Positions 396 through 31,906 of a stretch of 64,000 nt of DNA are shown piece by piece; position 1 is the first letter of the stretch, and each line of letters starts with the position of its first letter. Made by a program: the position numbers and the translations under genes. This stretch comes from Craspedostauros australis (Eukaryota), in assembly GCA_030167865.1 (NCBI GenBank), contig JALAGF010005512.1, positions 1 to 64,000 of the forward strand, in the 5' to 3' direction. The notes below the pieces were generated by a model. That model was not told the origin of the DNA and searched no databases. It saw only the letters and a list, made by a program, of their open reading frames with translations.

Positions 396-2669
396 GAAGC
401 CGAAGGCTACTCCACTTTGCTATCTACAAATAGGTCGTAGTCAGCCATTGGAGGAGGTATTTTAGTTTGGCCATAATTTCTGAATGAAACCCAGTCCTGT
501 TCCACCCTATTCACGAGTATGTGATCGAACGAGTCGGTCGTTGTTTACGACCTTGCGGACCGAAGTGACGTTTGTAAGGGCGTGACGTGACCTCGTTGCA
601 AACAGACTCTGTTAAGTAATATGTCGTATCATGCAAAAAGACGAATCGTATATAATGGTTCGGAACGAAGGAACGATCAGAACACAAAGCAGATGGTCTT
701 GAAGAGAACTAGCGCAGTGTACTTTCGGCGTTTGCGTACATTTTCCACCCGCTTCGCAACACAACACAACACAACATTCCGAAGCGACTCGGGAGCGCGC
801 CATTCTTCGTGGAAGAGAGAGGCGATCGGCAGTCGCCGTTTCTCTCTCGCGTCGTTACGTTTTTGCGCCGCGAGTGCAAGAAGAAGGTGAGAAAAGGAAA
901 GAAGACAAGAGGGGAGGGACATGAGGACGCAGAGTCAGCGTATCCATAAGCATAAGTATTGGTGGATTGTACATGCCTCACATCAAACAGCAACCAACGA
1001 TCACAAACGACCACCTCGAAGGGCAACAAGAACAATCAAACGCACGAGGAGAAGGACAGCAACCACCTCTTGGAGGAGTGGAGCGTGGTGGTGGCAACAG
1101 AAACAAGGAAACAAAGGCGGTTGGCCGGAACTCCACCCAGGCAATACTGCTCGCGCTTACGATTACTCTGGAAGTGTATCGTAGATCGTGCTCTATTCTG
1201 CTGTACTCGCAGAGCAGAACAGTGTATGGTATTAGAGGTCGTGCTCTCCGAAACCATCACACGATCGTACCGCACAGATAGAGTACCATACAAACGTACT
1301 CGTGCTCTTGGCGAGACGCTCCACAAGCAGGTCCATCTACCGGAGACGCGCGAGGTTGGACCGAAGCGGTGTTGGGAGCATCAGCAAGGTGAGCGACGGC
1401 ACCACCCAAAAACCAACGTGGAAGGACATTGCGCCGAACGCTTTCTGCATTTCATTTTTTGGTATGTGCGTGTGCTCGCGTTTTCGTGGCCGTCGTTGTG
1501 TTGGGCTGTTGGTGGGATGGATGTTCGTGGCACACGATGACGAACGAGAGGACTTGTCCACGGGTTGGCGCGCACGTGAGGAAACAAAAACAAGTCGGAC
1601 GTGGGAGGCAGAGTGACGCGGCGCAACTTGACGAAATCAAACAAGCCGCCGAGCAAAGAATCAAAAGAATCGAATCTTGTCTGTCGGAAAGATGGGACAC
1701 TCCAAGAATCTCCACCATCCTCAATCGGGCGCCATCAATAGCGCGCCATTCGATCGTCCTTGCCACTTCTCCCCATACTGGCATGCTCACATAATTTGTT
1801 CCTTGTTCCTCATCCATTGCAAACACCATCACCAACAACAACAACAAACTTCATCATCAGACCGGATCAAATCAAATCAAAGCAGAGTCTCTTGTGGTAC
1901 CACATCACAAGTTCAGACCCAAGGTGAACGTCACTGTCACCGTCAGGCTGAACTCGTTGGCAGACAATACTCGTGGGTAGAGACAATCACAGGGCAAAGG
2001 ACAGAAACGGCCAAGCGCTTTCGCCTGCATTGGTGAAGGAGAATCGACCTTTGATTTGACTCCGTCGGTGTTCTTGTCTGAAATCGAGCCAGGCATTCAG
2101 CATCCGTGTGCCGAACGAGTATTGCTGCAGGTTGGGACTTGATACACAGCGCTGTGTCATTGATCCATCCGTTCTGGTGACAGCACAGTTCAGCCACGAG
2201 AGTGCGATCGGAAGCAGTGCGACCAGCGGCGCAATCAACAGCAACAACACAACGAACGAGGTTGGTTTTTGCACACTCTCGGCGTCGCCATTTCGGAGCA
2301 TCTTCACTTTGTGTGTGAACCAAAAAGTGACAACGTCGCGAACAAGAGGACGACCAGCTGGTGGTTGGCTTTGGCTCCAATCAGCGTTTGCAATTTCACC
2401 TTGACTCCATTCCGGAATCACAGGAGACAGAGGTGTCTGCCATTGCACAGTGGCGCAGAACTCCCGTCTCAAGTGACTCCAAGGAACAAGCAACCAGCAA
2501 CAACTTCTTGTCACAAATCTACACATTCCTCTTGGATTGACGTCACAAAATTCAACACAACAGAAACGCAAAGCGTCGAACTGCATCGCAACAGGCAGCA
2601 ACACCATCATCCTCATCGTACGAGTACGAGTAAGACGCGTTGTACACTTGCACAACGCAACCAGTCAAC

Positions 2670-10005: not shown

Positions 10006-10080
10006 CGCGCTGTGATACAACGCGCTGTGATACAACGCGCTGTGATACAACGCGCTTTGATACGACGCTCTGTGTTCAAA
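10006..10080 (+). repeat. 15-bp tandem repeat: CGCGCTGTGATACAA x3 plus 2 degenerate copies
   Basis: Exact copies at 10006, 10021 and 10036; variants at 10051 and 10066. Ends 26 bp before the ATG at 10106. Confidence 0.9.
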
Positions 10081-10105: not shown

Positions 10106-13100
10106 ATGAACGGGGATGGAGGCGCAGGCGATGGCCCCAAGGACGGCGACGATGACGAGCATGACCTCGTGTTCGATGAGCACTTCGACTTCGCGACGAT
10201 GGATGCCAAGGTGAGGGACGCATCGCTGATGGCCAAGATAGAGTTTGTGATGATCTCCGATGACTACTTCGGCTGCCCCAACCCACCCACCGATCGGCAG
10301 CTCAAGTCCCTGTTCGCAATGATCGGCAACAAGGCCACCAACCTGCGATGCGTCAAGATCCGCGGCATCGAGGGTGCGCCGATGATGATCTCCGCGTTCC
10401 ATCTCTCGTGCTGCATCTCCGCGGCGTCGCTGGAGATCATCGACATCGACTACGGCATCTCGTTCACCACGCACCAGGACATCAAATCGTTCTCCAACGC
10501 CATCCGCAACCACAAGGGGCTCAAGGAGATGCGCTTTCGCAACTACACCATCCATCTCAAGAGCGATGGCATTGGCAGCAGATTTGGATTCGGCGCGGCC
10601 GTGCCCATCTTGGAACCGCTCATGCAGGCCATCGGCACCATATCGTCCACCTTGCGGCTCCTAGAGATACCGTGCGCCAGCTACGTCGCTAGCGAAGCTG
10701 CGGCGGATCGGCTCCTCATCTCCCCCAACTCCCTGCAGCCATTCTGCGAATCGCCGACTTTGGAATACCTCGACCTCTCGCACCTTCAGCTGGATGACAA
10801 CCACATGCTGCAATGCACATCCCACCTGCAGCGCAATCTGCATCGCATCAAGCTCAGCAAGCTGGCATTCAACGAGAACACGAAGATCACGACCGCAGGC
10901 ATCGATTGCATGCTGCTGCTCCTCGAGTATTCCACCACCATCCGCTGCTTCGAAATATACAACGCTGACCAACCGATCGCCGACGACGTCTTTCGTCACA
11001 TCGACGAGGTCCTGCAGACCAACACCACGCTCACCGCGGTCAAGGTCAACGCCAACTATGATCAATACGACAACATCGATTTTTACCTGGAACTGAACGA
11101 GGCGGGCCGTTCCAAGATCATCAATGCCTCTGCCGATCCGCAATCCAGCTGCGAGGATGTCATCGATGTCATGAACACCGTCTCGGACGAGGTCGGCCTG
11201 CTGTTCTACTGCTTGCGAACGTGCGGCAAGACGATCTTTCAAAACTGGCAAACGACGGAATGGATCCTGCAGGACAAGGGATTGCGGCAGCAGAGAGCGC
11301 CCATGCCATCACCGGACACGGGAGCACAACAAACGACCGCGTACCCGTGGGGTGGCGACGACAGCGAGTTCGATGATTCGCGACATCAGATCCCGCAGCA
11401 TTCCTACTCTTCGCAATACACCAGCGACGATTCCAGAGGACTGTCAACGGATGATCCGTACCGTAGCGACGAAGGTGATGAGTATGGGTCTTCCGATCTC
11501 CCGTGGAATCGTCCCAGCCAGTACATCAATGATGACGACCGCACGGACGATGATTACGAAGATGGCGACGGTTCAGAGTACGGTGCCGGCGGTCGACCGG
11601 ACACATTCATCGATATTCGGAAGAATGAATACGACGGAGGCGACTCGTTGCCGAATTCACGGCATGGCGATTACGAAAATGGCAGCAACGGCAACACTAC
11701 GAGCGACGACGAGGATGCCGAATATCAGCGATATTTGAGATCCCTGTCGGCGCCGTCCAAGCATGACAGCATGTATTCTTCTGTCGGTTCCAGCGCTGGT
11801 GATGATATATCAATGGTTGACGATGACGACTACGACAGTCGTGACAGCTACGACCACGATGCAGACGATGACGACGGTCAGTTGAAGGAATTTAAAGATC
11901 AGCTCAAATCCATGGAACGGTCATTGGAAATGGACGTTGATATGGATGAAGACGAAACACAAGCTCCACGTCAACGCAACGGCGATGGTGTTGACTATGG
12001 TGCCGGTGCCGGTGTTGATGTCGGTGTTGGCAATCATACCAGCATCAACGGTGACGACGACGATGACTCTTTGAACCAAGAAATTCGACGGCTGCCATCA
12101 TACGAGGAAGACTTGCAGTCCGAATTGAACCAAGCCAACGCTGCAGACGAAGAGGCCAACAAAGCAAGACAGGAAGAGCTACAGCCCAACACATCGAGAG
12201 GCATGGGCATCTTTGGTTCCATCTTTAGGAGGTCAGACAATACACCAAAGGAGAAAGAGGAGGAAGAAGTGGATCTTGACTTCTCCGAAACCGAAGTTGA
12301 TGACGCAGGATCGGGAACGGCAGACGCCCCAGCCACCAACGCCTATCCGTGGGACACCAGCGATAGGGATGTCGACGACAATGATGACGATGCTGACAAC
12401 GACAACGCTGGTGGTCATGATGATGATCATCATGAAGAGACCGACCTCAATGCTGACGAAAACAGAGATTCAGCGTTGCTGCATATCGCATCCAATGAAT
12501 CTGACCCCAATTCTCAGATGTCATCCAAAATGAGACTACCATCATTCGAAAGCAATGGTAGCGAAGATCATGATAGTGAAGGTGATGAAGATTTTGATAC
12601 CAACAACAACATCAGCATCAACCACAACAATGACAGCGGCAGCGGCGGTGGCGGCGAAGATGATCAACAGTACCTACAACACACTTACAGCACGGGTGAG
12701 GAGGAGGCAGAACAACGACAGCAACCCAAAGAGGTGGCATTGCAACTTATCGAAGAGCAGGAAATGGCTCGGCAGATCGCTGAAGAAGTCGAGGCTCGCC
12801 GGATTGCGGAAGAAGAGGCAGAGAGAATCGCTGCTGAGGAGGAAGCACGGCGTGTCGCAGAGGAAGTGGAGGAGGAGGCCAAAAGAATTGCTGCCGAAGC
12901 AGCAGAACGACTGCGCCTTGAAGCAGAAGCGGAAGAACAGGCCCGTCGTATTGCGGAAGCGGAAGAAGCTCAGAGGATTGCTCATGCTGAGGAGGAGGCC
13001 CGCCGCATTGCCGCTGAAGAAGAAGCAGAACGACTGTGCCTTGAAGCAGAAGCGGAAGAAGCTCGTCGTCTCGCAGAAGAGGAAGAGGCCGAGAGAATCG

Positions 13101-16100
13101 CTGCTGCCGAAGAGGCAGAGCAGTTGCGACTTGCAGCCGAAGAAGAAGCAAAGCGCATAGCTGAAGAGGAAGAGGCGGAACGACTCCGTATTGAGGAAGA
13201 GAAAGAAGCTGAACGATTGCGACTCGAAGCAGAAGCGGAGGAAGCTCGCCGTGTTGCAAAAGAGGAAGAGACAGAGGCCAAGAGAATCGCCGAAGAAGAG
13301 GAAGTTCGACGAATTGCTGCTGAAGAAGAGGCAGAACGGTTGCGCCTCGAAGCCGAAGAAGAAGCACAACGAATAGCTACAGCGGAAGCACAAAGGATTG
13401 CTGCCGAGGCAGCGGCAGAACAGCTCCGTATTGAGGAAGAGGAGGAAACTGAACGATTGCGACTCGAAGCGGAAGAAGCTAGACGCCTCGCGGAAGAAGA
13501 AGAGACCAAGAGAATCGTCGAAGAAGAGGAAGCTCGACGAATTGCTGCTGACGAAGAGGTAGAACGGTTGCGCCTCGAAGCCGAAGAAGCAAAACGAATA
13601 GCTGAAGCAGAAGCACAAAGGATTGCTGCTGAGGAGGAGGCAGACCGGCTCCGTATTGAGGAAGAGGAGGAAGCTGAACGACTACGACTCGAAGCAGAAG
13701 CAGAAGAAGCTCGCCGCCTCGCGGAAGAAGAGACCAAGAGAATCGCCGAAGAGGCAGAGGCAGAACGACTGCGACATGAAGCAGAACAAGAGGCGGAACG
13801 AATACAGCTGGAAGCAGAAGCGGAGGAAGCTCGTCGTCTCGCTGATGAGGAAGAGGCCAAGAGAATCGCCGAAGCGGAGGAAGAAGAACGACTTCGTCTT
13901 GAGGCCGAAGAAGCTCGTCATCTCGCAGAGGAAGAAGAGGCCGAGAGGCTTGCTGTCGAGGAGGAGGCAGAACGACTCCGCATTGAGGAGGAAGAAGAAG
14001 CTCGACGTATTGCTGAGGAAGAGGCAGAAGCACAACGAATTGCAGCCAAAGAAGAAGAGGTAGATCGACTGCGCATTGAGGAAGAGAAGGAAACAGAACG
14101 ATTGCGACTCGAAGCAGAAGAAGAGGCCCAGCGCATTGCAGAAGCAGAAGCAGAAACAATAGAAGCTGAACGGTTGCGTGTAGTTGCAGAGGAGAGAGCT
14201 CGACGCCTTGCTGAAGAGGAGGCAGAGGCAAAGAGGGTCGCTGCCGAGGAAGAGGCGGGACGATTGCGCCTTGAAGACGAAGCACGGCAGGCAGCGGAAG
14301 AAGCAGAGCGCCTTCGGCTTGCTGAGGAAGAGGAAGAAGCTCGGCGTATCGCAGAAGAGCAGGCAGAGGCTCGACGGATTGCCGAAGAAGAAGAGGCCCA
14401 GCGAATCGCCGAGGAAGAAGCCGAAAAGTCGCGGCTCGCTGAGGAAGAAGCTGAACGGTTGCGGCAGGAGGAGGCAGAAGCCGAAGCGCAACGACTCGCT
14501 GAAAAAGAAGAGGCTCGACTCATTGCCGAGAAAGAGGCAGAGGCAGAGGCAGAGGCGAAGCGGATTGCTGCCGAGGAAGAGGCCGAACGATTGCGGCTTG
14601 AGGAGCAAGCAAAGGCAGAGGCATTGAGGCGTGCACAAGAGGAGGCGGAAGCTCGCCGACTTTCTGAAGCAGCGGAGGCCAAGAGAGTGGCAGACAAAGC
14701 GAAGGCTGACAGACTCGCTGCCGAAGAGAAGGAAGCCGAGAGACAGAGAGTTGAGGCAGAAGCAGAAGCTTTGCGAATGGCACAAGAGGAAGAGGAGGCT
14801 CGTCGGTTGGCAGAAGAAGACGAGAGGAAGCTCGCTGAAGAACAAGAAGCCCAGCGACTTGCTACCGAAGACGAAGCTCTCCAAGCCGCAGAAGACGCCA
14901 GTTTGCACTCGCATGAGGCGGAGCAGCAGCTGGAGCAGCAGCAGCAACAACAACAAGAGCAACAACAAGAGCAACAACAAGAGCAACAACAAGAGCAACA
15001 ACAAGAGCAACAACAAGAGGAGGAAGAGGCAGAAAGAGGTATCTCGCAAGATGCCTCTGATCATGACGAAGAACGAATGGAACCTGCGCAAAATGACTCA
15101 GAGCAGCTGGTTGATGAAGAAGATGCCGGAGAGGAAGTGGAAGCTGGTCAAGATTCGGAAGAAGACGAAGTCGGCGCTCGGGTACATCCAGAGCAAGGCA
15201 GTGTCGATGAAACCGAAGAGGATGCCGAGATCAGCCCGACCAAGGCAAGAGGAAACCGCGAAACACAAGAGCGATCCCAGAATGGCGCAGACATGGGTGA
15301 AGAAGAGCAAGCGCCACCGAGCAACGAAGCGAACGAGACTGAGAATGAGAGTATGAGTGAGGATGAACGTGTGGGCGAGGATGAGCATGAGACAAAAGCA
15401 ATGGGGCTTGCAGGCCAATCGTCACAGACTATCGATCTCATCGAAGCGGCCAATACTGTACCGCCAACTACAGATAACGACCAGGAGGATAATCGCGATG
15501 GTGGAGAAGCAGAAGATGTTGGTCATGGCGGCGATGGTGATGGTGATGGAGCCACTTCTGCCATCGCTGCTGCTGATGCTGCTACCGAAACGGAGCGACA
15601 GGATGAAACGGATGAAGGACGAACTATCCAAGCCCAAGAGAGTGGTGATAGTGTCGATGCTGGGGCAACCAGCCACGCCGACGGTGGCAACACAAGTGCG
15701 AGCGACCTGCTCGGCGCTGGCGAGGCCGAACCACGATCACAAACAAGAGAGGCTCAGAAGGATACGCCTACTCACAAGGAAGCTACGAAATCGCCAATAG
15801 TATCGCCGCTGACGTCGCCTCTGACATCTCCAAGGGGACGAGGCCGATTCTTTGGGGGTCTGTTCGGACGCAAAAAGCGGGAAGAGGAACTGGCAGCCCA
15901 GAAGCAGCAACAGGAGGAGCTCATCAAAGAACAGCTCCGAGTCCTTGGGATCGAGCAAGGCAAAAATAGCCAGCATGAGGATCCAAAGTCACAAGTAGAG
16001 GGAGCAAAGGAGGCAGAGGTGGCAACACATTCAACGGGCACATCAGGTCAGAGTGAAATGCAAAGCAATGACCTTGCCTTGCCAGCGGGAATCACAGACG

Positions 16101-19100
16101 GCATGCCGGACCAAAGCGCCATGACGCCAAAGAATGACCAGCATGTCGACAAGGATAGTCCTTCTGACAAGCAGTTGCTGCCAGATGATGGTCATCAAGC
16201 ATCCAATGGCGTTCGTGTCATGGCTAGCACCGACGGCAAGCATGTACTTCCGATGAATCAAGACGCACGAGACTCGCAGGATCCTGACCAAGACGCCTCC
16301 TCCGACAGTAGACCCGACGAAGCTGGTTCGAGTGACAGAGACGTGGCCAAAGATGACGACGATGGCGACATCGGGACTGAATCTGCCACGATATCAACCG
16401 AACAAGAGGCCGATGCTAGCATCGACCACGGGCAAGAGAACGGGCATGCCAAAGCCGAAGATGACGAGACCGAGCTATTGGAGAGAAATGAGACAGGTGC
16501 CGTCAATGTTGAGAAGGATCATGCTGCTGGAAGCGAGCGTGATTCAAAGGATGACGTACCTACCGGAAAGATCGACAAGAGTCGACTCCCGACATCCTCA
16601 TTCATGCAGCCTGTCCACGAGAAGAGCCTCCTCCCGAACTCTGCGGTGCAGTCTGTTGGCGACAAAGGCAAACTTCCTGGACAGCTCCAACACAGCGACG
16701 AGGACGCCAAGAGCAACGATAGTGAAGACAACGTGTCTCGCGAACACGGAGAAGAACCTCATCTGGACAGCAATGGTACGAGAAAGTTGGAAAGCAAGAG
16801 TGAAAGCATCCAACCACACGCAACATCAAAAGCAGGCACCAAACCACCCAATCCAAACACGGACAGCAAAATCGATGCCGTCGTCGAGAACGACGATGCT
16901 GACGCCGACGAAGAACATGACGGCAATGGAAACGATGGCAACAACGGGAACAAAGACAAAGACGATGAGCAGCACGACAGCTCGACAAGAGCTGCAGAGG
17001 ACGCAGAAGGTGCGGAGGAGTCGAATAAACCACGATGGAAGTGGTTGAAGACCATTGCCGACAAGAAGGAGATTGATCAAACTTGGAACAAGGCCAAGTC
17101 CTTCATCCCGAAGGGCATCGTTGAGAAGGTCAGCACAACGGTTGGGACAGCGCGCAACAGGGACGCAAAGGACACCGCAGAACTAAAATCAGAAGCGCCT
17201 GGAGAAACCACAGACCAGGATGCAGATGCTGGTACCGACGCTCGTGGTGTTGATGATGGCGAAGGAGTTCATGCTGGCACAGTCACGGGCGCAGCGCAGG
17301 ATCAGCCATTCACAACAAAGGCACCACCTGCGAACGAGCAAGAAGCCAAGGCAGATAAAGGCGGCCGGAGTTTCCTGGGGACGCGTTTCCTGGGTGCACT
17401 TGGAAGGGGCCGCGCGGCACACAAGGACAAGAACGATGACGATGGCATTATGAATGCAGTCGAGAAAGATCGCAGCGAGGCTGGAATCAACAACGATGAC
17501 CGCAAGGCTGCAGATGCAGGCGTAGACGCAGACGCAGCTCACTCAAGCGATGATCTGAAGCACCAACAGATGATGCGAGCCGTGCTGGTCCCCGATGACT
17601 ACGAAGCTGAATGCAAACGTCTGATTGACATTGTCTTCGATAACGACGAGAATCTTGACATTGAAGCGATGATGAGCAAATCGACTCCAGAAGATCTGTA
17701 CAAGTACCTGAAACAGCAGCACTGGTACATGCTGCACATGAAAGGTGGCAATAGCGCAGATTCCAAAGCAGATATCGACTACACGACGCCCAATACATCG
17801 AATATTACCGACATGCTTTCTCGGAGCCTGCATGAACGGCCACCGTTCCCCAGCACGCATGAACGAGCGACCGAAGACGATCTGGGAGACGGTGCCTTCC
17901 TCCATCCTGGCATGGCAACCGCGGAGGTTGGCGACAGGGAAGCGATGGATCACCAAGATGAATCGGCGCCAAGCCTCGTTGGCAGCGAAGAGGCAGAACT
18001 TGACAGCGAGAGTGAAGGCGAGGTGGAAATCGATATGGGAGATACCGTTGGTGAGGATAATGACGATGATGATGATGACGACGACGACAGCGGCAGAAAT
18101 AGACGGCAAACAACGAATCGCAAGGACAGCTTCTCCGAAGGCGACGACGACATCCAGAGCTGCGAAGAGCCTGATTTGGATTATGATGGCTCAGCTATTG
18201 GCGATGACACAGGCTCGAGCAACGAAGACGGAACTGGGCTCCGAAGCAAGAGCGACCACAGTGATTTCACACCGTCCGTCAGCTTTCATCAGGCCGGTGA
18301 GGATGATACATTGGAGCAGTACGAAGCGGACATCAAGGCAGCAAAGAATCGATATGTCATCAGCGAGCGAAACATACGTGAAGAAGAAGAAGACGAGGAA
18401 GATCTCGACGCTCGACTCGCCCGTGGCGCCCACTTCGAGCATGAGCCGGACGCCGATGATGAGGTCGAAATGGACGCTGAGGCTCAAGAGGAAGCGGTGC
18501 GTAAGGCAAAGGAAGAGATCTTCAAGTCATTGGCTCTCGCACAGCAAGGCTGCGGTCTTGAAGACGATGTTGATGCCCATGGCGACGAAGAGTATGATCG
18601 CGATCGTGATGCTCACGATCGTCAGTCGGAACTGCATGCCGAAGGCAACAACCGCGGCGAGGGCGAGGAGGTCGAAAGCAACGAAGAGCGGGAGCAGATC
18701 AAGAAGGATAGAGAGAAGGCGAAGAACGCGGTGAAGAACGTTCTGCTCAAACGTTTGTTCGAGCCCAACAGCAAGCCGCAGTCCGAGGAAGAGATGGAAA
18801 GGAACCGGAAAAGTCGGCAAGACGCAAGGCGCGCAGTCCAGTCTGTGCTTCGTAAACGCCTTCTGGGTGGTACGAACTCTGCCCACAGCAACGAGAACAT
18901 GTCCGGCGATTTCCTTTTACGAGGTGACTCTGGCCATTCCAGTCTCTTCGGCGGGAAGGACAATCTCAGTGAGGCGGCTGGCATGCAGGCGTACGGCAAG
19001 ACGTCAAACCACGGTGCCAATCAGTACCGACAGCGGCGGATCCACGGAGGCCTTGGGTCTCAATCTGGCTCTTTCCATTCTCACGATACACACGATATTC

Positions 19101-20536
19101 AGGAGATTGACGAGGAGGACATCGAAGCAGCTGAGGCAGAGCAAGGCGAAGGAGCAGATGAAGCAGCTCAGAGCCACGGGCGGATTCGGCAGACCGATGA
19201 TGATCAAGACAGTTTCCAATATGACAACGAATACGAATCTGAGCATTCTCAAGGCGAGGAGACCACTGTGACCGTTCTGAAGGATCATTCAGCTCACGAT
19301 GAAATCAAAGCTCTGAGGGCGTGCCAGAGACCGCAGAAGAATGTATCGATGCTGCAACACTACCAAGGTGACGCTGCACCAATGGGTAAGCAGAATCTAG
19401 CTGAGAAGAACGAAAGAGGCAGAACCCGTGAGCATACTGGTGACAACGGTGATGGCGATGCTAATGGCGGAACCAACTCACCTAGATCTTCTCCAAAGCG
19501 CAGAAGAAACAAGCACCGTGGATCTGAGTCACCTGGCGCGGATGAACAGGGTGGTGATAGTGGCGACGAAGCTGGTGAAGCATCAGCGGTGTCGCGCGGA
19601 CGCGCAAAGTTCGAGGCGATGACCCAGCGCAGCAAACGCAAGAAGGCTTCCTCTGCAGGCAAGAAGTCGAAGTCGAAGAGCGTTACCTCCAAGGCTGCAA
19701 AGGAGAAGGCATCAGGATCGAAACAAAAGTCAAAATCGAAAGCAAATGCAAAGTCGAAGTCGAAGGTGAAGGTGGCGCCGGAAGATGCAAATTATGTAGG
19801 ATTGGAGAAGGATGATGTGTGCACCATAATTCCCGGGCATCCAGGGACGAAGTACCTCCGCCGTGTCGTGCGTGCCTACATCAAACAGTTTGATGAAAGG
19901 AATTACGGACCCCGGGCGTATAAGACAATCAAACGACGCATGAACGAAAGGAAGTTCGTCGTCGGTGCTGGTGCCGACGAGGAAGGGGACTGGCGTGAAG
20001 CGACCAAGCAGGAGCGCATCGACTTCGTGGGGAAAGTCTTTAACTATGAGAAGCAACGTCACAATGCCGACAAAGGCGGGCCTTCGAAATCGTCGAAACT
20101 CAAGTCCCCGTCCGCAAAGAAAGGCAAGCTGAAGACCGTCAACGAACGCAGACGCGCCAAGGATGTCAATTCATCCTTCGATCGCGATGTCAGCACCGAC
20201 GAAGACGAAGGTTTCTACGACGACGACCACGACCATGACGGTCACGATGACGATGCTGATTACGAAGCTGTGGAACCAGGTCGGTTGGACATCTGCATGG
20301 GTGTTCCAGATCATCCTGGCACGAACGCATTCTATCGGGTGCTGAAATCGTTTATCAAGAAGCATCAGCCTCCGACGTACACGATGGAGGTGTACGAGGC
20401 AATGAAGAAGAAGATCTACACCAGTCGCATGCTCACAGCGCTGGACGCCGAGAATTGGCGACTTGCCACGAACGAGGAATGCATCGATTTTGTGGGCGAT
20501 TGCTTTGCAGAAGTGACCGAAGGCAATCAACCTTGA
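10106..20536 (+). CDS. Giant 3476-aa protein: RI-like LRR domain, acidic disordered region, E/R/A-rich helical repeat, acidic linker, K-rich patch, two DUF6824-like domains
   Basis: Uninterrupted 10.4-kb ORF. LRR strands ([20 protein letters not shown]) end in a [10 protein letters not shown] cap. [11 protein letters not shown] repeats. Two DxC..HPGT..R domains at the C-terminus. Confidence 0.9.
12760..14880 (+). repeat. Coding minisatellite, 10-11 aa units ([11 protein letters not shown] / [11 protein letters not shown])
   Basis: Repeated gaagaagaggcagaacg-like units; obvious in the translation. Confidence 0.9.
14944..15018 (+). repeat. 12-bp coding repeat (CAACAACAAGAG)n encoding QQQE
   Basis: About six perfect copies, read directly. 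Confidence 0.9.
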
Positions 20537-21290: not shown

Positions 21291-22583
21291 TCACTTGGCC
21301 AGTGGCATGCGATGTCTCAGCAGGGACGGCGCCTGCTGAAGCATGAAGAAGAGCACGTCGGCTTCGGCAGAATCCTGCTCCACCCGATTCCACTTGATGT
21401 GCTTGGCGCGGTTGAAGACATTCGGCCAGGCCGATATTGGAAATCCGCGCGAGGTTGTGAGCAGCCGCCGTCCGCCACGATTCAGGATGAGGTAGTACTC
21501 CATCTCCTTCTGTATCCAGTTGACGGCATCGCTGCGATCCTTCGGCAGGAGCAATTGATGCAGACCGGCATTGTGCTTGACGGCATCCAGCAGCCGGCGG
21601 GCACCGGCCTTGTCGAACCGGTTGCCGTACAGCCACAGCGTCCGAAGTCCCTTCATGTGCGGCAGATGATCGGCAATCGTCATGACGCTGCGGTCTGAGA
21701 TGCTGCAGTTGTTGAGCCGCAGCTCCGTGAGGGTTGTGTTTTCCGTGAGCGCTGCCGAAAGGCTGGTGACGTCGCCCTCGCTGAGCTTGTTGCTGGACAA
21801 GTCAAGGAAGGAGAGGGTTCGATTCGTGGGCAAGGCCGATGCCAGGAAGGAGACGGCGCAAGTGTCGGTGGCCAGCTCCTGCTGGTTGCTGAGATCCAGC
21901 TTGACGAGCTTCTTGCTGTCGGATTTGAGCAGGCTGGAGATGGCGATCATGCCCTTGGACCTGCAGCAGCTGCCCTGCACGGAAAGCTCGACGAGCGAGG
22001 TGTGGCTGTCGAGCGCGCGGATGAGATCAGAGACGTGGCCGTCTTCCAACGAGCAGCGATTGAGACGCAGGCGTTTGAGGTTGGTGTTTTGCTGCAGTCC
22101 ACGTGCCAATGCGGCGATGGCCCTGCGATCGGAGGCGGACAGCATGAGGCTGAGGTCTTCGAGCGCTGCGTTGGATGCCAGGCCTTCCGCCAATGCGACC
22201 GCGAGATCCGTGCAGAGGTTGACGCGCAGAACCAGAGTTTCGACGGCGGTCTTGGTGTTCTTGAGTCCATTTGCCAAGGCGTAGAGACACTTGTCGTCGA
22301 TCATGTGGCCATCCGGGAGGAGGGTGATCTTTCGCACGCTGCCCTGCTCGAGGGCGTTGGTGATGACGACGTCGACCTTGCCGGTGCAATGCGCCAAGTG
22401 AATTCCATCCCACGTCCGCTCCTTCGAACGTAGCACGTCGACGATGCAGTCGCAAACCATCTGGTCGATGTAGATGAGGCTGATGTAGAGCTCCGTGAGA
22501 GCGGTGTCGTTCTTGAGCTTGTTCAGCCTCTCCACGATGGATTGGCTGTCGAGCCCGGTGAGGAAAAGAATTTGGGACGTCAT
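21291..22583 (-). CDS. Ribonuclease-inhibitor-like (NLRC3-type) LRR protein, 430 aa
   Basis: About 28-aa repeats (NTNLKRLRLNRCSL, NRTLSFLDLSSNKL, NTTLTELRLNNCSI) and a C-terminal cap YYLILNRGGRRLL..W..V..DVLFFML. Confidence 0.9.
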   Translation of the reverse strand: MTSQILFLTGLDSQSIVERLNKLKNDTALTELYISLIYIDQMVCDCIVDVLRSKERTWDGIHLAHCTGKVDVVITNALEQGSVRKITLLPDGHMIDDKCLYALANGLKNTKTAVETLVLRVNLCTDLAVALAEGLASNAALEDLSLMLSASDRRAIAALARGLQQNTNLKRLRLNRCSLEDGHVSDLIRALDSHTSLVELSVQGSCCRSKGMIAISSLLKSDSKKLVKLDLSNQQELATDTCAVSFLASALPTNRTLSFLDLSSNKLSEGDVTSLSAALTENTTLTELRLNNCSISDRSVMTIADHLPHMKGLRTLWLYGNRFDKAGARRLLDAVKHNAGLHQLLLPKDRSDAVNWIQKEMEYYLILNRGGRRLLTTSRGFPISAWPNVFNRAKHIKWNRVEQDSAEADVLFFMLQQAPSLLRHRMPLAK

Positions 22584-22626
22584 GATTGTCTGTCACTCAC
22601 TCTGTCTATCCTTTCGATTTCCAACT

Positions 22627-24650: not shown

Positions 24651-27600
24651 ATGGTTCACCTTGTGACAATGACCAACACCCTCGCAAGCGACCACCCGCG
24701 CGACCAGGCCACGGCCAATCAGCTCTTGGCACGGCCACCGCCCATTGCGGATGCCCATCTGCAGCCCGAAGAGGACGCGCAAGCGGAGTCCCCTGCTCCT
24801 GCCACCACCGCTCTGACAACGGCCCCTGCTGTCACCACCACGCCAAGCCCCAAGCAATCCGACCTGTCTTCCCAGGAGGTCCAATCGCCCCCCGCGACGT
24901 CTCCGCAGCTACCGCAGTCTTCGGGATCCAAGAGGCATCGCGCAGCAACGCACATGCAGTTGCCTGTGCAAGCGCACGTGCCCGTTGCAGTTGCCATTGC
25001 CCAGGCCGTTCGCGTGCCAACAAGCACATTCGTGGACAATGCCGATGGGAAGAAGCGCAAAATAGTTGCGCATCCACACGCGGTTGTGCAAGTGCTCCGG
25101 CCTGCCCATGCCCGTGCTCATGGCACTGTCCCTGGCAACGTCCATGCCCATGGGTACGAACAACAACCGCAGCCAACCCTGTCTTCGACGCCTGCCAAGG
25201 GGAAACCATTCGCCGCATTCACTCCTCCAGCTGAGGGTGGCACTCATGTCTCGTTGGAGGAATCAGGATACGCATCTCCGGACGAGGACCAGGTCATCAC
25301 GGGCGAGAAGAAGGGAAAGGTAGTGTCCCCAACGGCCGCCGCCGCATTCGCCCTGTCCTCGTTGCAACACATGCGACCCCACATCGGTCAGCCGGGTGCA
25401 GGCGCTGACAATACCCACGGAAGTCCTTCGCGATATGACGAAACCAGTTCGCTCACGAGGAAGCAGCTGTTCAAGAACTCCCCACCTGCGTCGCAGTTGC
25501 GGGAGCGTGCAAGGAAGACCATGGATGCGTCCCACGATGACCCCACCGGTCAGGCTACTCACCATCAGACGTATGCAGGCGCCCAGGCAGGATCAGCATC
25601 CATCTCCCACACGGCAATGCACGCCTCGCCTGCTGCACCGTCATTGTCAGCAAACGGGGCTCAGCCCGCGGGAAGAGTGGCCATTTCGCCAGTTGCTGGG
25701 GGCAACTTGGAGACGCCGAGGCGTACGGGGGCACCAAGTAAACTCGGAGAGAATGGGGACGGACAAGCCAACGGGAACCTCGTGTCGACATCAGCTTCTG
25801 CGGCTGCGGCTGGAGGCGCCGATGGATATGTGCAAGTGCCAACACAGGCACAGGGACAACAGCAGGAGATGCAAGCACAGGACTACCCAGTCGCTGGAAC
25901 GAAGCCGGTGACCACGCCAGCAGGTTACAAGCCCTACACCCTCGTTACGCACGGGCTCGGCTGGCTGGCGGATCACTCCACCTCGAAGGCGCACAAGACA
26001 TCATCCGAGGCCTATCCTTACACCGCTCTGCTCAACGGCGCTGAAGCGATGCACGCAGCAACTCAAAATCCAAACCAGGTACGTTTCCTGCTTTGGTTGT
26101 GTGTGCGTGTGCATGTGTGTGTGTCAATCTCTGCGCAACATCAGCATGGCACATCTCAACGGCCCAATGCGATTCTGTGATGTCATACATTGCGGTGTGA
26201 TGGGTGCGATGAGACGTGATCATGAACGGCTGTCATACTACACAACTCAACGCAAGTTCAAATCGACTGTCTCCGCACGGCAAAGTCCCAACTTTTCCTT
26301 CATCTCACTCGGTCTGTTTTGATTTCGATCTCTGGCTTTGCCGTATCACCCACACCGGCGACAACGATGGCTACGGCTACCACTACGGCGTGATCATATT
26401 TGCATGCGTACGACTTCCGGAGCAGACGGCGAGCGGTCATCACGGTGAGAATGGCGTCAGTTCGGAACAACCCAGCATGGTCAACTCCTCAATCGTCGAC
26501 AAGATCGCCAGTCCAGGTATGGCTCAGTCGTCGTCCTCCATGTCTCAGGCTCTACCAACCACAAACGCTTCCATGGTGGCAGGTGCTGCTGGAAATGCAA
26601 ATTCCGAAGGTCGTGTTCCCACCGGTCACGATGGCACAAGCCCATCTTTGGCTCGATTGGCATCTTGCGCGTACTCGCTGGTCACGCCAACTCCGACCAA
26701 GAAGAAGAAGCAAGCCACGTTCCAGGTCAACAGGAAAGTGTGCACATCGCCTCCGTACCTTGCACCGCAGCAGCCGGTGTCGATGTATTCGAGGAAGCGC
26801 AAATCGCTGGGTGTGCTGGCCGAGAACTTCATGAGAGTCTTCTCCCAGAGCCCCACCGGATCGCTCGTCGTGCTGGATGAGGCGGCGGTCATGCTGGGTG
26901 TGGAACGACGACGCATTTACGACGTCGTCAACATTTTGGAGGCACTTTCGATCGTCACCAGGAAGCAGAAGAACACGTACTTTTGGAACGGAACGACCAA
27001 CCTCGATGTCTTCTTCTCGAAGCTTCAAGCGGAAGCGATCGAGAACTACCCCGACATCGCGCAGGCCAACGGCTTTCCCACCAAGTCGCCCATTGCAAAG
27101 CAGATGGAGGATCAGGACAGCAAGTCGTTGGCGCGGCTCAGTCGCGAGTTTCTCAAGATGTACCTTCTGGGACACGAGACCCTGTCGTTGCCGCAGACGT
27201 CCGAAATGATCCAAGGCTCGCCGATGGAGAACAAGCTCCTGACCACAATGAAAGATGGCATAACCGAAAACGACGCCATTGTCCAGCACCCCGACTTCAA
27301 ACATCTATCCAAGAAGGAGATCGACGACATGCGAGGAGCCGCGGTGCGTGGGCACAAGACGAAAACACGCCGCCTGTACGACATCGCCAACGTCTTCCTC
27401 AGCGTTGGATTGCTGTGCAAACTGGACGGCAACGACCCGCAGAGCGCCAGACGACCTCGCTTCATCTGGTCCTACCGGCTGACGGCGATGGAGATCTTCG
27501 AGCTGAGCGCCGAGCTGGCCGCCGTGGCCAAGGCTGCAGCAGAAGCGGAGGCTAAAGCGGCGGCAGAGGCCAAAGCCGCAGAAGAGGAGGCTGCCAAAAA

Positions 27601-28390: not shown

Positions 28391-30592
28391 CAAGAGAGGG
28401 GAGCGGAGGTGGCACGAACAGGTCGCACGCACCGTGCTATGATCGCCATCAGTGTCCTCGTCGTTGCCATCGACTCGCCGATCTGCAACATATTATACTA
28501 CACAATACAGCACTGCTCTGCTACGACTATAGGCGATACAAAATGTTATTGTAATAATAGTAGAGAGTGGGATTAGATATAGCCCAGAGGATTCCGAATG
28601 CAAACATGCTCTCCAGAAAGTAGTGTTGATTGTGCCAGCGCAGGAGAGCGGCTGCGGAACCCTTGAGTTGCGGTGCCAAGAAATGGATGCGTGCATTTCT
28701 CAGGCACGCACCTGGCGCGACGGCCACTGCATAGCATAGTGATCAGTGTGTTGGGCAGTGTAACTTGGAGAGTGTTCTGCTCTATTCGTACTTGCGCCTT
28801 CTCGTACTCATACGGTATGGTCCGTGTCAACAAAGATGATGTTGTTTGGGACGAAGTGTAAAGAAAAAGAAGCAAAGGCAACAGCCACAACCACAGAAAA
28901 GGCCTCGGTCCAGAGCAGCGCGTCGCGTCAGATCGCATCCATCAGACATCATGTCATCAGATCCCATGACACCACAAGCCAATCTGCGAACTTGTACTTG
29001 CCGCCAAGCGTCACATCACATCGCATCACCTTGCAGCCTTCGTCTCTTCTTGTCATTACCAATTGTTCCGAATCTCCCCCTCCTTCTGGCTCTCTCTCTC
29101 CTCTCTCAACTCAAGTATCGCGCTGGGGCTTGTTGAGAGGTCAGGAAGCGGAGTTTCGATCGGGCTTGTTTGGAGTGATGAGGTTGCTTTTTGGCATCAC
29201 CATCATGGCGCCAAAATTCACGCTACGCTTCTTAGTGTCACGGTTCGCCAGTTTGCAACCGGAACAACCATCCGTGCGTTGTTTGCTGCGTGTCACATGG
29301 GCGCAGAAGGTTATGTGTGGGTTTGTCACGCTGTTAAATACCAAATCGAGCGCCGTGTCTGTCGGCGACACATGCACACAACGAAGGAGCCGTTGGGATT
29401 CAGCCCAATACACAAGCCTTGTGATGCGTGAATGAAATCACAGAATTCGCATGGGCACGAGTATGTCACTCGGAATGTTCGAACACGGAAGATTATTCCT
29501 GTTTGAATTGTCGTGCTGGCGCGCGATCGGTGATGCCAACCTCATTTTTCTGTTGTTCTGTGAGAGTGAACGAGAGGTGGTGGTGATGTCAACAGGCAAC
29601 ATCATCACCAACGACGAAGCGACACACATCAACAACAAAGCGCTCACCAACGAACATCATCGATCGTCAATCCAACAGAACAGAACAAGTAGAACAAACA
29701 GAACAAACGGAGAGCCGAGGCAAAAGAGAGTGCTCGATCAGTATTCGAACGAGGGTGTAACCAGCTAAACGATCACACAATCAACCAAACACCAATGCGC
29801 ATCATCCTGTGACCAATGCTCGTCGAGTAGAGCAGAGCAGAGCGCATTACAACACAAACAAACACTCACATCATCCACACCATCCGCATCATCCACATCA
29901 TCCACACCCTTGGCAGTTGCCCCTTCCCCAATACAATTTGTTCGGACGCTCCCACAATCATCAAAGCGGCGATCAACAATTCGCATTGCAAACAGAAACG
30001 CAAAGCGCACCCCAGATCCCCAAACCTCAAGAGAGAAACGTGGCAACTGCACAATCGTGAGCATCCACTCGCGGCCCCATCAACCATCTGTTCACAACAA
30101 GGACCTCTTCTCACCAAATCGTAAAACCAATTCATCGATCAATCGATCAATCAACCAATCAAGAGTGGTCCATCAAGAGGCAATCAAGTGAACGTTTACT
30201 CTATCAATACCAACCTCTCTCTCCGTCCGCCCATTCTCAGAACATCGAACATCAAACTCCAATCTTAGATCATCCTCTCCCCATCACACGATCGTGAAGG
30301 AACAACTCCGCCCGACTTCAACCAGATCGTCTTCAGTGACACATCGCGGAGTCGTGCGCCTTCATTTGATTTTAAAAAAGGGAACTCCTTCGCCACCTTC
30401 AAATTCATCCGCACAACACGCACACACACAAACGCATTGCCCGTCGCAAATCACAAATCACAAACAACCACAAATCAGCCAAACACACGACAAAGAACAT
30501 CAACAACAAAGATTAGCAACAAGCACAAACACAAAAACAAACAACAGACAGCAGACAGCAGACAGCAAACAGAAAACAGAAAATACACAAGC

Positions 30593-31906
30593 ATGTTCTG
30601 CCAAATGCTATTCCTCACGGGCGAGGGCGACAGCAATGCCATCGTCAAGCGCCTGTCGAAGCTCAGTAAGAATTCCACGTTCACGGAACTCTACATTTCA
30701 GCCATCCACGTGGACGACGTCATTGTCAAGGCCGTTCAGGAGATGCTCCACTTCAAGCGTTTCCGCGTCGGTGTTCACATCGCCCATTGCACGGGGAAGG
30801 TCAACCAATTGATCGATGCCATCTACGCAAACAGCAAGGTGCAGAAATTGACCATGCTCACCGATTGTCCACGGCCAGATTTTTCGGCATTGGGACGCGG
30901 CCTCACGCGCAATACTCACCTGCGAAGGCTGGCAATTCAGGCGCCCTTGTCACCGGAAGCTGCCAAGGCCCTCGGTGAAGGAATCAGCACATGCAGGGCG
31001 CTGCAGGAGCTCAGCGTCTCCATCTCGGGAACCAACCTAGCAGCGTCCAAGGCATTGGCGAAAGGATTGAAGCGAAACGCATCCCTCACGACGCTCAAGC
31101 TCATCCGTTCCGGCAAGCAATTCGGATCCAACGCCGACGAGGATGAAGAGCTCCATCTCAGCGTCATCCTCAAGGCCCTCAAAAAGCACCCCACGCTCAA
31201 GAAGCTGGTCCTTCAGAACAGCGCCTGCAGCACGGCGGGAATTCCAGCGTTGGCAGAAATTCTGCGGTCAAGGCACTGCCGTTTGACGCAGCTGGAGCTC
31301 GTCAACTACCGGTACCGCACGGAAGTGCTGCCAGATCTGCCGGTGCTCATGGGCGCGCTGCAGGCCAACTGCTCGCTTCGCAAGTTGTCGCTGTCGGGCC
31401 ATTACCTTTGCGAACAGGATGTCAGCAGCCTGTCCTGCTCCATCTCCACGTCCGGCATGCTGCAGGAGCTCTGCCTCACTAACTGCGGCCTCAATGACAC
31501 CAGCGCCTGCATCCTCGCCATGTGGCTGTACGAGCTGTCATCCCTCAAACGTCTCTACCTCAAGGACAATCCCTTCGGTTCCGTCGGCGCACGCGAGCTG
31601 TGTGAGGCGGTCAAGATCCACTGGGAGCTGGAGGAGGTCCTGCTGCCGGGCACGACGATGTCGAAGAAGCGCATGCAGAAATGGCAGGAGATGATCGAAT
31701 TCTACCTCATCCTCAACGCTGGAGGACGGCGTCTGCTGCGCGAGCACAACTTCCCGACGTCGCTGTGGGCGCAGGTGCTGGCGCGGGCGGAGCAGACATG
31801 CTGGGATGGCTCGTCCTTCATGCCGCTGAAACACGACAACATCCAAAGCGCCCAGTCCGATATCATTTACCATCTTTTGCAGGGACCCGCTGCTCTGTCC
31901 AGATGA
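30593..31906 (+). CDS. RI-like LRR protein, 437 aa, paralog of 21291-22583
   Basis: ATG at 30593. LRR repeats, shared N-terminus (LFLTG..DS..IV.RL.KL..TELYIS, HCTGKV) and cap FYLILNAGGRRLL. Confidence 0.9.
   Translation: MFCQMLFLTGEGDSNAIVKRLSKLSKNSTFTELYISAIHVDDVIVKAVQEMLHFKRFRVGVHIAHCTGKVNQLIDAIYANSKVQKLTMLTDCPRPDFSALGRGLTRNTHLRRLAIQAPLSPEAAKALGEGISTCRALQELSVSISGTNLAASKALAKGLKRNASLTTLKLIRSGKQFGSNADEDEELHLSVILKALKKHPTLKKLVLQNSACSTAGIPALAEILRSRHCRLTQLELVNYRYRTEVLPDLPVLMGALQANCSLRKLSLSGHYLCEQDVSSLSCSISTSGMLQELCLTNCGLNDTSACILAMWLYELSSLKRLYLKDNPFGSVGARELCEAVKIHWELEEVLLPGTTMSKKRMQKWQEMIEFYLILNAGGRRLLREHNFPTSLWAQVLARAEQTCWDGSSFMPLKHDNIQSAQSDIIYHLLQGPAALSR

Follow-up and report, generated by a model that had tools for sequence, protein, structure and literature searches.

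The feature examined in the window (64,000 nucleotides of Craspedostauros australis contig JALAGF010005512.1) is a single forward-strand open reading frame (ORF) predicted to encode a giant modular protein, the components of which are collected in Table 1. The initial annotation had claimed one 3476-codon ORF, and at 10106..20536 (+) this proved to be exact: frame +1 contained 0 stops, compared with 57 and 222 in the remaining forward frames and a mean of 146 (minimum 113) in 200 mononucleotide shuffles of the same sequence, and the longest other open frame of the window extended to 932 codons. Composition bins gave a hydrophobic content of 33-39% for aa 1-400, and this region is read as folded on that account. 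Pfam searches conducted with the whole protein (E <= 1) and with four pieces of it each returned 0 families, and no enzymatic or effector domain was thereby detected at any point along the chain.

Table 1. Features of the giant ORF, with positions in the window.
Feature	Residues (aa)	Positions	Strand	Remarks
Whole ORF		10106..20536	+	3476 aa, 387 kDa, pI 4.45, net charge -453
RI-like LRR head (moderate confidence)	~45-390	10238..11275	+	~9-10 strand/helix units; ESM, AF2, Foldseek, P0058
C-terminal LRR cap motif	326-335	11081..11110	+	Common to P0058 and two neighbouring LRR genes
Acidic polar low-complexity spacer 1	401-864	11306..12697	+	D+E 24-34 per 100 residues; hydrophobic 15-21%
Basic FG motif 1	698-709	12197..12232	+	
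Charged, putatively helical rod	865-1606	12698..14923	+	E 36%, A 24%, R 15%; decamer repeat
Acidic polar low-complexity spacer 2	1607-3100	14924..19405	+	Hydrophobic island near aa 2500-2600
(QQQE)n-coding tract of perfect 12-nt repeats (x 6), end of rod		14948..15019	+	
Basic FG motif 2	1910-1925	15833..15880	+	Followed by an EEL..QQELIK.QL stretch, as is a similar motif of P0058
Basic FG-like motif 3	2418-2436	17357..17413	+	
K/S/R-rich basic patch	3101-3228	19406..19789	+	K+R 24-25%; KRRR and KRKK clusters
HPGT domain copy 1	3229-3320	19790..20065	+	
HPGT domain copy 2	3386-3475	20261..20530	+	AF2 model of 20255-20533

The closest relative recovered was P0058, a 1950-aa 'hypothetical protein' in which an LRR head, charged helices and an HPGT tail likewise occur in one chain. 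When a profile built from the heads of both proteins was searched against proteins of 738-2105 aa (7999 candidates), P0058 alone was returned. The two capped heads share 28% identity over 389 columns (E 4e-36) and the HPGT domains 35-37% identity (E ~1e-13), and P0058 resembles the giant further in being acidic overall and in possessing charged helical segments. Unlike the giant, it is about half as long, and contains one complete HPGT copy together with a truncated second HPG motif; its helical segments are K-rich and charge-balanced, flank the HPGT domain on both sides and extend to only 102 and 126 aa, so that the length of the rod is not conserved. The claim that this architecture is without precedent was borne out, P0058 being the sole relative found to combine head and tail, and DUF6824 (PF20710), the domain to which the tail had been likened, being itself uncharacterised. 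Literature searches for DUF6824, PF20710 or diatom HPGN found no paper, and those for diatom LRR proteins found nothing relevant.

The LRR head and its capped neighbours

An RI-like LRR head had been proposed for the N-terminus, a proposal that gained support from ESM features, from Foldseek and from a predicted solenoid model, but none from Pfam. The ESM features placed the head at 0.96-0.90 to LRR_6 and LRR_TMOD-LMOD clusters, the top cluster being auto-named 'Ran GTPase-activating protein (Fragment)', while the low-confidence AF2 model (pLDDT 54.9) consisted of alternating short strands and helices arranged in ~9-10 units. The best-ranked Foldseek matches in the PDB were the LRRs of NLRP3, NLRC4, CARMIL, FBXL17 and COI1/TIR1 (E 2e-6 to 1e-4; TM 0.16-0.44). 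Pfam LRR models returned 0 families against aa 1-420 (E <= 10), sequence-profile searches of the PDB with head and tail gave chance-level matches only (E 0.07-0.64), and a word-indexed search for homologues of the head, run over proteins of 231-735 aa, retained 0 of 3525 candidates. It may be concluded with moderate confidence that the head is a folded RI-like LRR solenoid with a lineage-typical C-terminal cap.

The cap motif [FY]YLxLNxxGR occurred in exactly three ORFs of the window, namely the giant and those at 21294..22592 (-) and 30269..31903 (+), in full agreement with the earlier claim that genes of the same cap type lie nearby. Both neighbouring products (ORFs 21291-22583 (-) and 30593-31906 (+)) share with the giant head the cap and a hydrophobic tail motif, and are RI-type LRR proteins that match Pfam LRR_6, LRR_1 and LRR_4, whereas the giant head has no Pfam match; they also differ in consisting of 430-437 aa and ending at the cap. 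Similarity to the giant head was weak in each case, hhalign assigning a probability of 81% (E 1.2e-5) to the first and 15% to the second.

Acidic spacers and the charged rod

The initial annotation had also claimed over 2000 residues of acidic disorder, of which the acidic low-complexity character was upheld and the extent reduced, the acidic polar sequence outside the rod amounting to about 1,950 aa when summed over composition bins. Spacer 2 gave no match in Pfam, and a phmmer comparison of both spacers (aa 401-872 and 1607-3229) with the 109 HPGT-family proteins, P0058 included, likewise gave none. The clusters of K and R next to the tail might serve in nuclear import, in the manner of an NLS, or might bind acidic partners.

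One alternative would place the function of the protein in its acidic residues (~880) themselves, as a polyanion sink or chaperone for histones, basic proteins, polyamines or cations, with the LRR and HPGT ends serving only to target it, much in the manner of the ANP32 type of small nuclear LRR-plus-acidic-tail proteins. A D+E content of 25.5%, the low pI, the similar acidity of the homologue P0058 (net -140) and the presence of the KRRR and KRKK clusters close to the C-terminus would all be compatible with such a role. It is nevertheless considered rather unlikely: no sequence relation to characterised acidic chaperones was apparent (Pfam, 0 families; PDB profile searches empty), the spacers exhibited no detectable conservation in P0058, and the regular decamer helix would be left unexplained.

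That helix, the rod, is built from a repeat of the form (A/E)EEEA(E/R/K)R(L/I)(A/R)E, and over 734 residues (aa 872-1605) contains one Pro and one Gly. Charged residues (E+D+K+R) constitute ~55% of its composition, with A at 24%, Q at 4% and L/I/V at about 14-15% (14.7% when counted as strongly hydrophobic residues), and with an E:R+K ratio of about 2:1 the net charge is -139 to -143. Opposite-charge pairs at i/i+3 and i/i+4 were present at 0.433 per residue, as compared with 0.265 ± 0.014 in 500 shuffles. The dominant period was 10 residues (z 12-29), and hydrophobic periodicity at 3.5, 3.6 and 3.67 residues fell below the shuffled controls (z -2.7 to -1.7) irrespective of whether Ala was included. 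The rod thus lacks the heptad (3.5) or hendecad (3.67) periodicity of a canonical coiled coil, and exhibits the excess of opposite-charge pairs and the lack of a hydrophobic heptad seam that characterise a charged single alpha-helix (SAH), while its charged content of ~55% lies below the level of up to or about 80% E/K/R (or charged plus polar residues) used as a further SAH criterion. Apart from the segments of P0058, no rod of at least 80 aa was present in the HPGT family (0 of the 107 other proteins).

PMC5812594 describes SAH domains as connectors that are enriched in long multidomain proteins, puts their typical content of charged or polar residues at up to or about 80%, and reports that Ala-rich designs aggregate; the connector role is also treated in PMC4571873 and PMC4183817. 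With ~55% charge, and in view of the aggregation of Ala-rich designs (PMC5812594), the monomeric helicity of the rod is not assured. Its pattern of residues suggests that it would behave like a charged single alpha-helix of the SAH or ER-K type, and hence as a semi-rigid spacer with a reach of at most ~110 nm, the approximate end-to-end distance if the rod is fully helical.

That the rod is instead an oligomerising coiled coil, which would make of the protein a dimeric or multimeric filament-like tether of the golgin or nuclear-matrix style, is judged unlikely. Although L/I/V recur every ~10 residues in a background rich in Ala, and the charged fraction falls short of that given for SAH domains, the depressed periodicities at 3.5, 3.6 and 3.67 residues and the low content of strongly hydrophobic residues both argue against such an assembly, and parallel chains, with a net charge of -139, would repel one another.

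The tandem HPGT domains of the tail

The two related terminal domains noted at the outset were confirmed as modules of ~90 aa each, exhibiting 34% identity over 76 columns (E 7e-18). Both also matched the hidden Markov model (HMM) of the HPGT family, a family defined in this analysis and absent from Pfam, with E values of 1e-27 and 9e-24. The module follows the pattern D-V-C-F ... H-P-G-T ... Y ... G-R-R-F ... W-R-E-A ... E over ~90 aa, its most conserved columns being D (98%), G (96%), T (89%), E (89%) and H (85%). A search of 1.84 billion representatives placed 109 proteins in the family at E <= 1e-3; 159 copies were counted in 110 proteins, in 68 of which a copy lay no more than 30 aa from the C-terminus. 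Fusion partners identified by scanning the 109 proteins included arrestin (10), TPR (8), signal peptide peptidase (6) and DnaJ (1).

The AF2 model of copy 2 was a confident one (pLDDT 92.6, pTM 0.81) with the order strand-helix-helix-strand-strand-helix. Foldseek returned 0 PDB matches to it at E <= 0.001 (best E 0.59, TM 0.26), and in the ESM Atlas the same copy matched only clusters without names. A winged-helix reading of the domain was dropped on the strength of the same Foldseek result. HPGT is a distinct module and, if the model is right, would be a new small domain, confidently predicted in its fold but lacking any solved counterpart. Its conserved residues look structural, forming a turn and a helix cap. 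Complex prediction with copies 1 and 2 gave a score of 0.00, a value obtained with alignments unused and with the fold of the partner uncertain, which speaks neither for nor against binding. Two further candidate readings were rejected, namely nucleic-acid binding by the tail, as the domain is not basic as a rule (median net charge +1; positive in 51%), and an NLR-like nature of the HPGT-bearing TPR proteins, a Walker-A motif being found in 0 of 8.

With respect to DUF6824, to which the tail had been described as similar, no direct match was found, and a remote relation may at most exist by way of one other protein. The Pfam model (84 positions; gathering score 27 bits) gave no match, even at E <= 10, either to aa 3099-3476 of the giant or to copy 2 alone. 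The two domains are similar in size and share an HPG[NT] turn, but the motif of the HPGT family is HPGT (88 of the 159 copies) and not HPGN (8 of 159). P0081 was the only one of the 109 family members to reach the Pfam cut-off, its copy 1 scoring 38.9 bits against DUF6824 while also matching the HPGT HMM (4e-19); below that cut-off were P0006 (19.6 bits) and one member of the HPGT alignment (E 0.017). On these comparisons any kinship between HPGT and DUF6824 would be remote.

The sensor-effector fusion that had been offered as an alternative to a scaffold gained no support, no enzymatic or effector domain having been found and the conserved tail residues appearing structural. The occurrence of HPGT elsewhere as an appendage, mostly at the extreme C-terminus, of scaffolds and membrane proteins would be in keeping with a docking or adaptor role, and we infer that it is a domain of that kind rather than an enzyme.

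Proposed function and relation to known systems

Taken together, these data are most readily accommodated by one real gene at 10106..20536 (+) encoding a giant polyanionic modular scaffold that serves as a tether or spacer of long reach, a joint reading drawn from the anatomy of the protein and to which a probability of about 0.5 is assigned. About 2,800 residues, the ~740-residue rod among them, lie between the folded end modules, and it is on this separation and the rod that the long-range scaffold or tether of the initial annotation stands as the best, if inferential, reading. In such an arrangement the rod would act as a semi-rigid spacer with flexible acidic tethers on either side, and a ligand of the LRR head would be kept some way off from the docking partner of the HPGT modules.

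A bolder extension, distinctly improbable at present, is that HPGT is a hitherto unrecognised fold, perhaps lineage-specific, that serves in docking or as a homotypic adaptor, that wires unrelated scaffolds to one hub and for which the giant provides the long-range element. The clients of the hub would then comprise arrestin-fold, TPR and DnaJ proteins, signal peptide peptidase, membrane-anchored stubs and the LRR giant, with the net-negative helix of ~740 residues serving as a ~100-nm ruler or spring between LRR-bound cargo and the hub.

As regards the single gene, the only database entry identical to it was P0002, a C-terminal piece of 198 aa that starts within HPGT copy 1 and covers HMM positions 52-90 only; since it begins inside a folded domain, it is taken to be a truncated fragment and not to mark a natural start. 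A word-indexed search with the head (3182 candidates) found no full-length entry among database proteins of 1911-6083 aa. That the ORF is not one protein, but is expressed as distinct or alternative products by way of internal starts or splicing, or owes its length to repeat mis-assembly, is very improbable, for while P0002 and the missing full-length self-match, the fall in GC3 from 0.81 in the head to 0.42-0.63 downstream of it, the internal Met at aa 700 followed by G-I-F-G-S (which resembles the N-myristoylation pattern MGxxxS/T) and the tandem repeats of 84-228 nt in the rod might each be so explained, 10.4 kb proceed without a stop, P0002 begins within a folded domain, the rod repeats have diverged (64-82% matches), making assembly collapse or inflation less likely, and the joint presence of head, charged helices and tail in P0058 argues for a single gene.

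No long-standing open question is addressed directly by the giant protein. If the model of HPGT is right, the attachment of this domain to no fewer than five kinds of scaffold or membrane protein would suggest that diatom-like algae possess an interaction network that has gone unstudied. The rod, if helical, would rank among the longest natural charged helices predicted and, being strongly net-negative and built from decamers, is therefore a useful test case for SAH stability as a function of charge balance; the two taggable ends of the tether would equally provide a convenient object for measuring reach within the cell.

Among known systems, RanGAP and ANP32 resemble the giant in that an LRR is followed by an acidic low-complexity region. 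They differ from it in giving no sequence match (Pfam, PDB profile), and in the giant the acidic part is 10-50 times longer, encloses a regular helix and is accompanied by two extra folded end domains. The SAH or ER-K spacers of INCENP and the myosins are like the rod in being long, E/R-rich and free of helix breakers, in their excess of salt-bridge pairs and lack of a heptad seam, and in their placement between folded modules of a long protein; the rod is distinguished from them by its much greater length (~740 aa), strongly net-negative charge, Ala content of 24% and regular decamer repeat.

Open reading frame and domain layout

The 3476-codon open reading frame (ORF) claimed in the initial annotation proved to be real: it runs from ATG to stop in a single frame (+1) containing no internal stop, compared with 57 and 222 stops in the other two forward frames and with a mean of 146 (minimum 113) in 200 shuffles of the same bases. 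The second-longest open frame of the window has 932 codons. The predicted giant protein has a mass of 387 kDa and a pI of 4.45; its peak hydrophobicity over 19-residue windows (1.62) was located within the head, no 19-residue window outside the LRR core exhibited clear transmembrane hydrophobicity, and the acidic N-terminus suggests a cytosolic or nuclear location. The surrounding genes (pirin, alpha/beta hydrolase, E2F/DP, CK2-beta, fumarase, POT transporter and emp24) form a neighbourhood that is that of a eukaryotic nucleus. GC3 was 0.81 in the head, similar to the neighbouring LRR genes (0.78–0.81) and fumarase (0.86), and 0.42–0.63 in the remainder, the GAG share of Glu codons likewise dropping after the head from 0.65 to 0.29–0.53.

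The layout of the protein was established from composition in 100-residue bins combined with a charged-helix scan. The hydrophobic island of spacer 2 could represent a small element that is folded or helical; it has neither a Pfam match nor a counterpart in P0058, the homologue considered below. Three short basic FG motifs are set amid the acidic disorder; in the first of these an internal Met, which could be an alternative start, is followed by GIFGS, a combination that resembles the N-myristoylation pattern. The 15-bp tandem repeat preceding the ORF stops 32 nt short of the ATG and could be a promoter or 5′-UTR element.

Coordinates of the giant ORF, its domains and other features of the window
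Feature	Window position (strand)	Protein position (aa)	Remarks
15-bp tandem repeat	10006–10074		CGCGCTGTGATACAA; 4.6 copies, 92% matches
Giant ORF	10106..20536 (+)		3476 codons
Folded head		1–400	33–39% hydrophobic
Spacer 1, acidic and polar		401–864	
Basic FG motif, first	12197–12232		
E/A/R helical repeats (rod)		865–1606	
12-nt repeat	14948–15019		CAACAACAAGAG; perfect, × 6
Spacer 2, acidic and polar		1607–~3100	
Basic FG motif, second	15833–15880		
Basic FG motif, third	17357–17413		
Hydrophobic island in spacer 2	~17603–17905	~2500–2600	29% hydrophobic
K/S/R-rich patch		3101–3228	KRRR and KRKK clusters
HPGT domain, copy 1		3229–3320	~90 aa
HPGT domain, copy 2		3386–3475	~90 aa, related to copy 1
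Long ORFs overlapping the rod	12555–15356		opposite strand and other frames
Example of these	13682..15064 (−)		460 aa
Stand-alone RI-type LRR gene	21291–22583 (−)		
Stand-alone RI-type LRR gene	30593–31906 (+)		
Four ORFs without a Pfam family	2670–5177, 24651–26180, 48237–50054, 56493–58571 (+)		509–835 aa; E ≤ 0.01
ORF with DUF7640	33400–36180		sole Pfam match

Leucine-rich head and HPGT tail

The head had also been taken for a ribonuclease-inhibitor (RI)-like LRR domain, an assignment retained here with moderate confidence, as a local capped subtype, because ESM-Atlas features, a structural model, Foldseek, the cap motif and neighbour alignments point to it, although Pfam returned nothing for the head even at E ≤ 10. 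By ESM-Atlas features, aa 20–400 adjoin RI-type LRR clusters, LRR_6 and LRR_TMOD-LMOD (scores 0.96–0.90), the nearest being mostly from Bacillariophyta, in keeping with a diatom source; the ten best matches with a Pfam family all belonged to the same family or clan, a result also reached by a third of shuffled proteins. Built from a single sequence, the AlphaFold model is of poor quality (pLDDT 54.9, pTM 0.52) but has ~9–10 alternating strand/helix units, and Foldseek ranked LRR proteins among its best matches (NLRP3, NLRC4, CARMIL, FBXL17 and COI1/TIR1; E 2e-6 to 1e-4, TM 0.16–0.44). A cap motif forms the C-terminal end of the head, with a hydrophobic motif ~35 residues further on. Three ORFs of the window, and no others, contain the pattern [FY]YLxLNxxGR: the giant and the two stand-alone LRR genes. 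All three lie within 22 kb, and they bear out the prior claim of two nearby genes with the same cap type. The head profile aligned with the minus-strand neighbour over 152 columns (hhalign probability 81%, E 1.2e-5), and weakly with the plus-strand neighbour (probability 15%; BLASTP E 0.002).

Sequence identity between the two terminal domains is 34% (E 7e-18). A phmmer search with aa 3225–3476 against 1.84 billion representatives returned 109 proteins at E ≤ 1e-3, 21 at E ≤ 1e-10 and one at E ≤ 1e-30; this single strong match, P0002, has 198 aa and is identical to aa 3279–3476. An iterated HMM located 159 copies of the module, here termed the HPGT domain, in 110 stored proteins (one copy in 76, two in 19, three in 15), with a copy no more than 30 aa from the C-terminus in 68 of them. 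The turn motif reads HPGT in 88 of the 159 copies and HPGN in eight, and the conserved residues (D 98%, G 96%, T 89%, E 89%, H 85%) look structural, not catalytic. Pfam scans of the 109 proteins, 39 at E ≤ 0.01 and 70 at E ≤ 0.001, identified as fusion partners arrestin N/C domains (10), TPR_12 or NPHP3-type TPRs (8), the C-terminal part of signal peptide peptidase (6) and DnaJ (1). No Walker-A motif was present in the eight TPR proteins; a stretch of P0023, an HPGT-TPR protein (aa ~1240–1280, GYRDLLFHV…EVQVHH), may resemble RelA/SpoT-type nucleotidyltransferases.

The DUF6824-like character attributed to the tail survives at most as a remote tie. DUF6824 scored above its cut-off in one tail-family protein (P0081, 38.9 bits against 27), below it in another (P0006, 19.6 bits), and at E 0.017 in one of 28 members of the HPGT alignment A1 scanned singly at E ≤ 10, a threshold at which copy 2 of the giant itself had no Pfam match. 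The tail is consequently regarded as a separate family of domains, as yet unmodelled and related to DUF6824 remotely at best. An AlphaFold model of copy 2 with A1 (pLDDT 92.6, pTM 0.81) adopts a strand-helix-helix-hairpin-helix order in which the first helix opens with the HPGT motif; Foldseek recorded no PDB relative of this model at E ≤ 0.001 (best E 0.59, TM 0.26), and a sequence-profile search of the PDB with the tail likewise found none.

Charged rod and proposed function

Two folded end modules flank polyacidic spacers and a helix-prone rod devoid of a coiled-coil pattern, and copies of the HPGT domain are found again at the C-terminal ends of scaffold and membrane proteins. This anatomy fits the long-range scaffold or tether originally suggested, and from it we would assign a probability of about 0.5 to the giant being a long-reach tether or spacer, whereas the accompanying proposal of a sensor-effector fusion is unsupported because no effector domain was detected in the protein. 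The LRR head would bind a protein partner, the HPGT modules would dock to a site or hub common to other HPGT proteins, and the rod would set distance or serve as a spring, roles described for charged single alpha-helix (SAH) domains in the abstracts of PMC4183817 and PMC4571873. That the protein, with a net charge of −453, instead acts as a polyanion sink or chaperone is considered unlikely.

Residues 872–1605 include a single Pro and a single Gly and are rich in E (36%), A (24%) and R (15%), followed by L (8%) and I (5%). Sixty units anchored on R-[LIV] gave the consensus (A/E)EEEA(E/R/K)R(L/I)(A/R)E, and the underlying DNA contains diverged tandem duplications of 84–228 nt (64–82% matches). 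Opposite-charge pairs at i/i+3 and i/i+4 amounted to 0.433 per residue, against 0.265 ± 0.014 in 500 shuffles. A 10-residue period was prominent (z 12 for hydrophobic, 29 for acidic and 19 for basic residues), and on an alpha-helix such a repeat would turn the hydrophobic positions about the axis and so leave no seam. As far as sequence can tell, this pattern is the signature of an SAH, not of a coiled coil. A coiled-coil filament is a still less probable alternative, since hydrophobic periodicity at 3.5, 3.6 and 3.67 residues fell below that of shuffled controls (z −2.7 to −1.7) with Ala counted or not.

If fully helical, 731 residues of the rod would extend ~110 nm. According to the SAH survey PMC5812594, up to or about 80% charged or polar residues are typical of SAH domains and Ala-rich designs aggregate, whereas the rod has ~55% charged residues, a high Ala content and a net charge of −139, so that its stability as a monomer is not assured. 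The 12-nt repeat directly after the rod codes for (QQQE)n, and its length is likely to differ between strains. The long ORFs overlapping the rod were rejected as genes and read as artefacts, because its purine-rich repeats carry few stops (1–3 per 1.5 kb on the minus strand).

A diverged homologue and comparison with known proteins

When the head was compared with the 109 stored tail-family proteins, the one match was P0058 (1950 aa, E 2.3e-32), for which BLASTP gave 28% identity over 389 columns of the head (E 4e-36) and 35–37% in the tail domain. Like the giant, it has the cap motif, basic FG motifs (two similar ones against three) and a negative net charge (−140); it contains two charged helical segments (102 and 126 aa), and the stretch EEL..QQELIK.QL follows one of its FG motifs as it does in the giant after aa 1925. 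A rod of at least 80 aa was found in none of the 107 other tail-family proteins. The P0058 record is a single-member cluster ('jgi: hypothetical protein') on a 12.9-kb contig. At aa ~1560–1580 a second, truncated HPG motif (…DVLDHPGR…) is continued directly by charged helical repeats, which gives the impression of a second tail domain that was overwritten.

Because two much-diverged sequences combine the head, the charged helices, the motif and the tail in one frame, P0058 provides the best available evidence that the giant is probably one gene product. The contrary possibility, that the ORF does not encode one protein, is improbable in view of P0058 and of the stop-free frame; P0002 is a truncated fragment, since its start falls inside HPGT copy 1 and HMM positions 52–90 alone are present. 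Comparison with P0058 also shows that the extreme length of the rod is a recent expansion in the lineage of the window.

Apart from one uncharacterised domain, the giant is assembled from parts of familiar types (LRR, SAH-like helix and disordered acidic linkers). Searches of Pfam, the PDB, protein databases and the literature yielded no described counterpart of their combination, in agreement with the initial annotation, which knew of no protein with such an architecture. We class the giant as a modular scaffold whose spacer is a charged helix.
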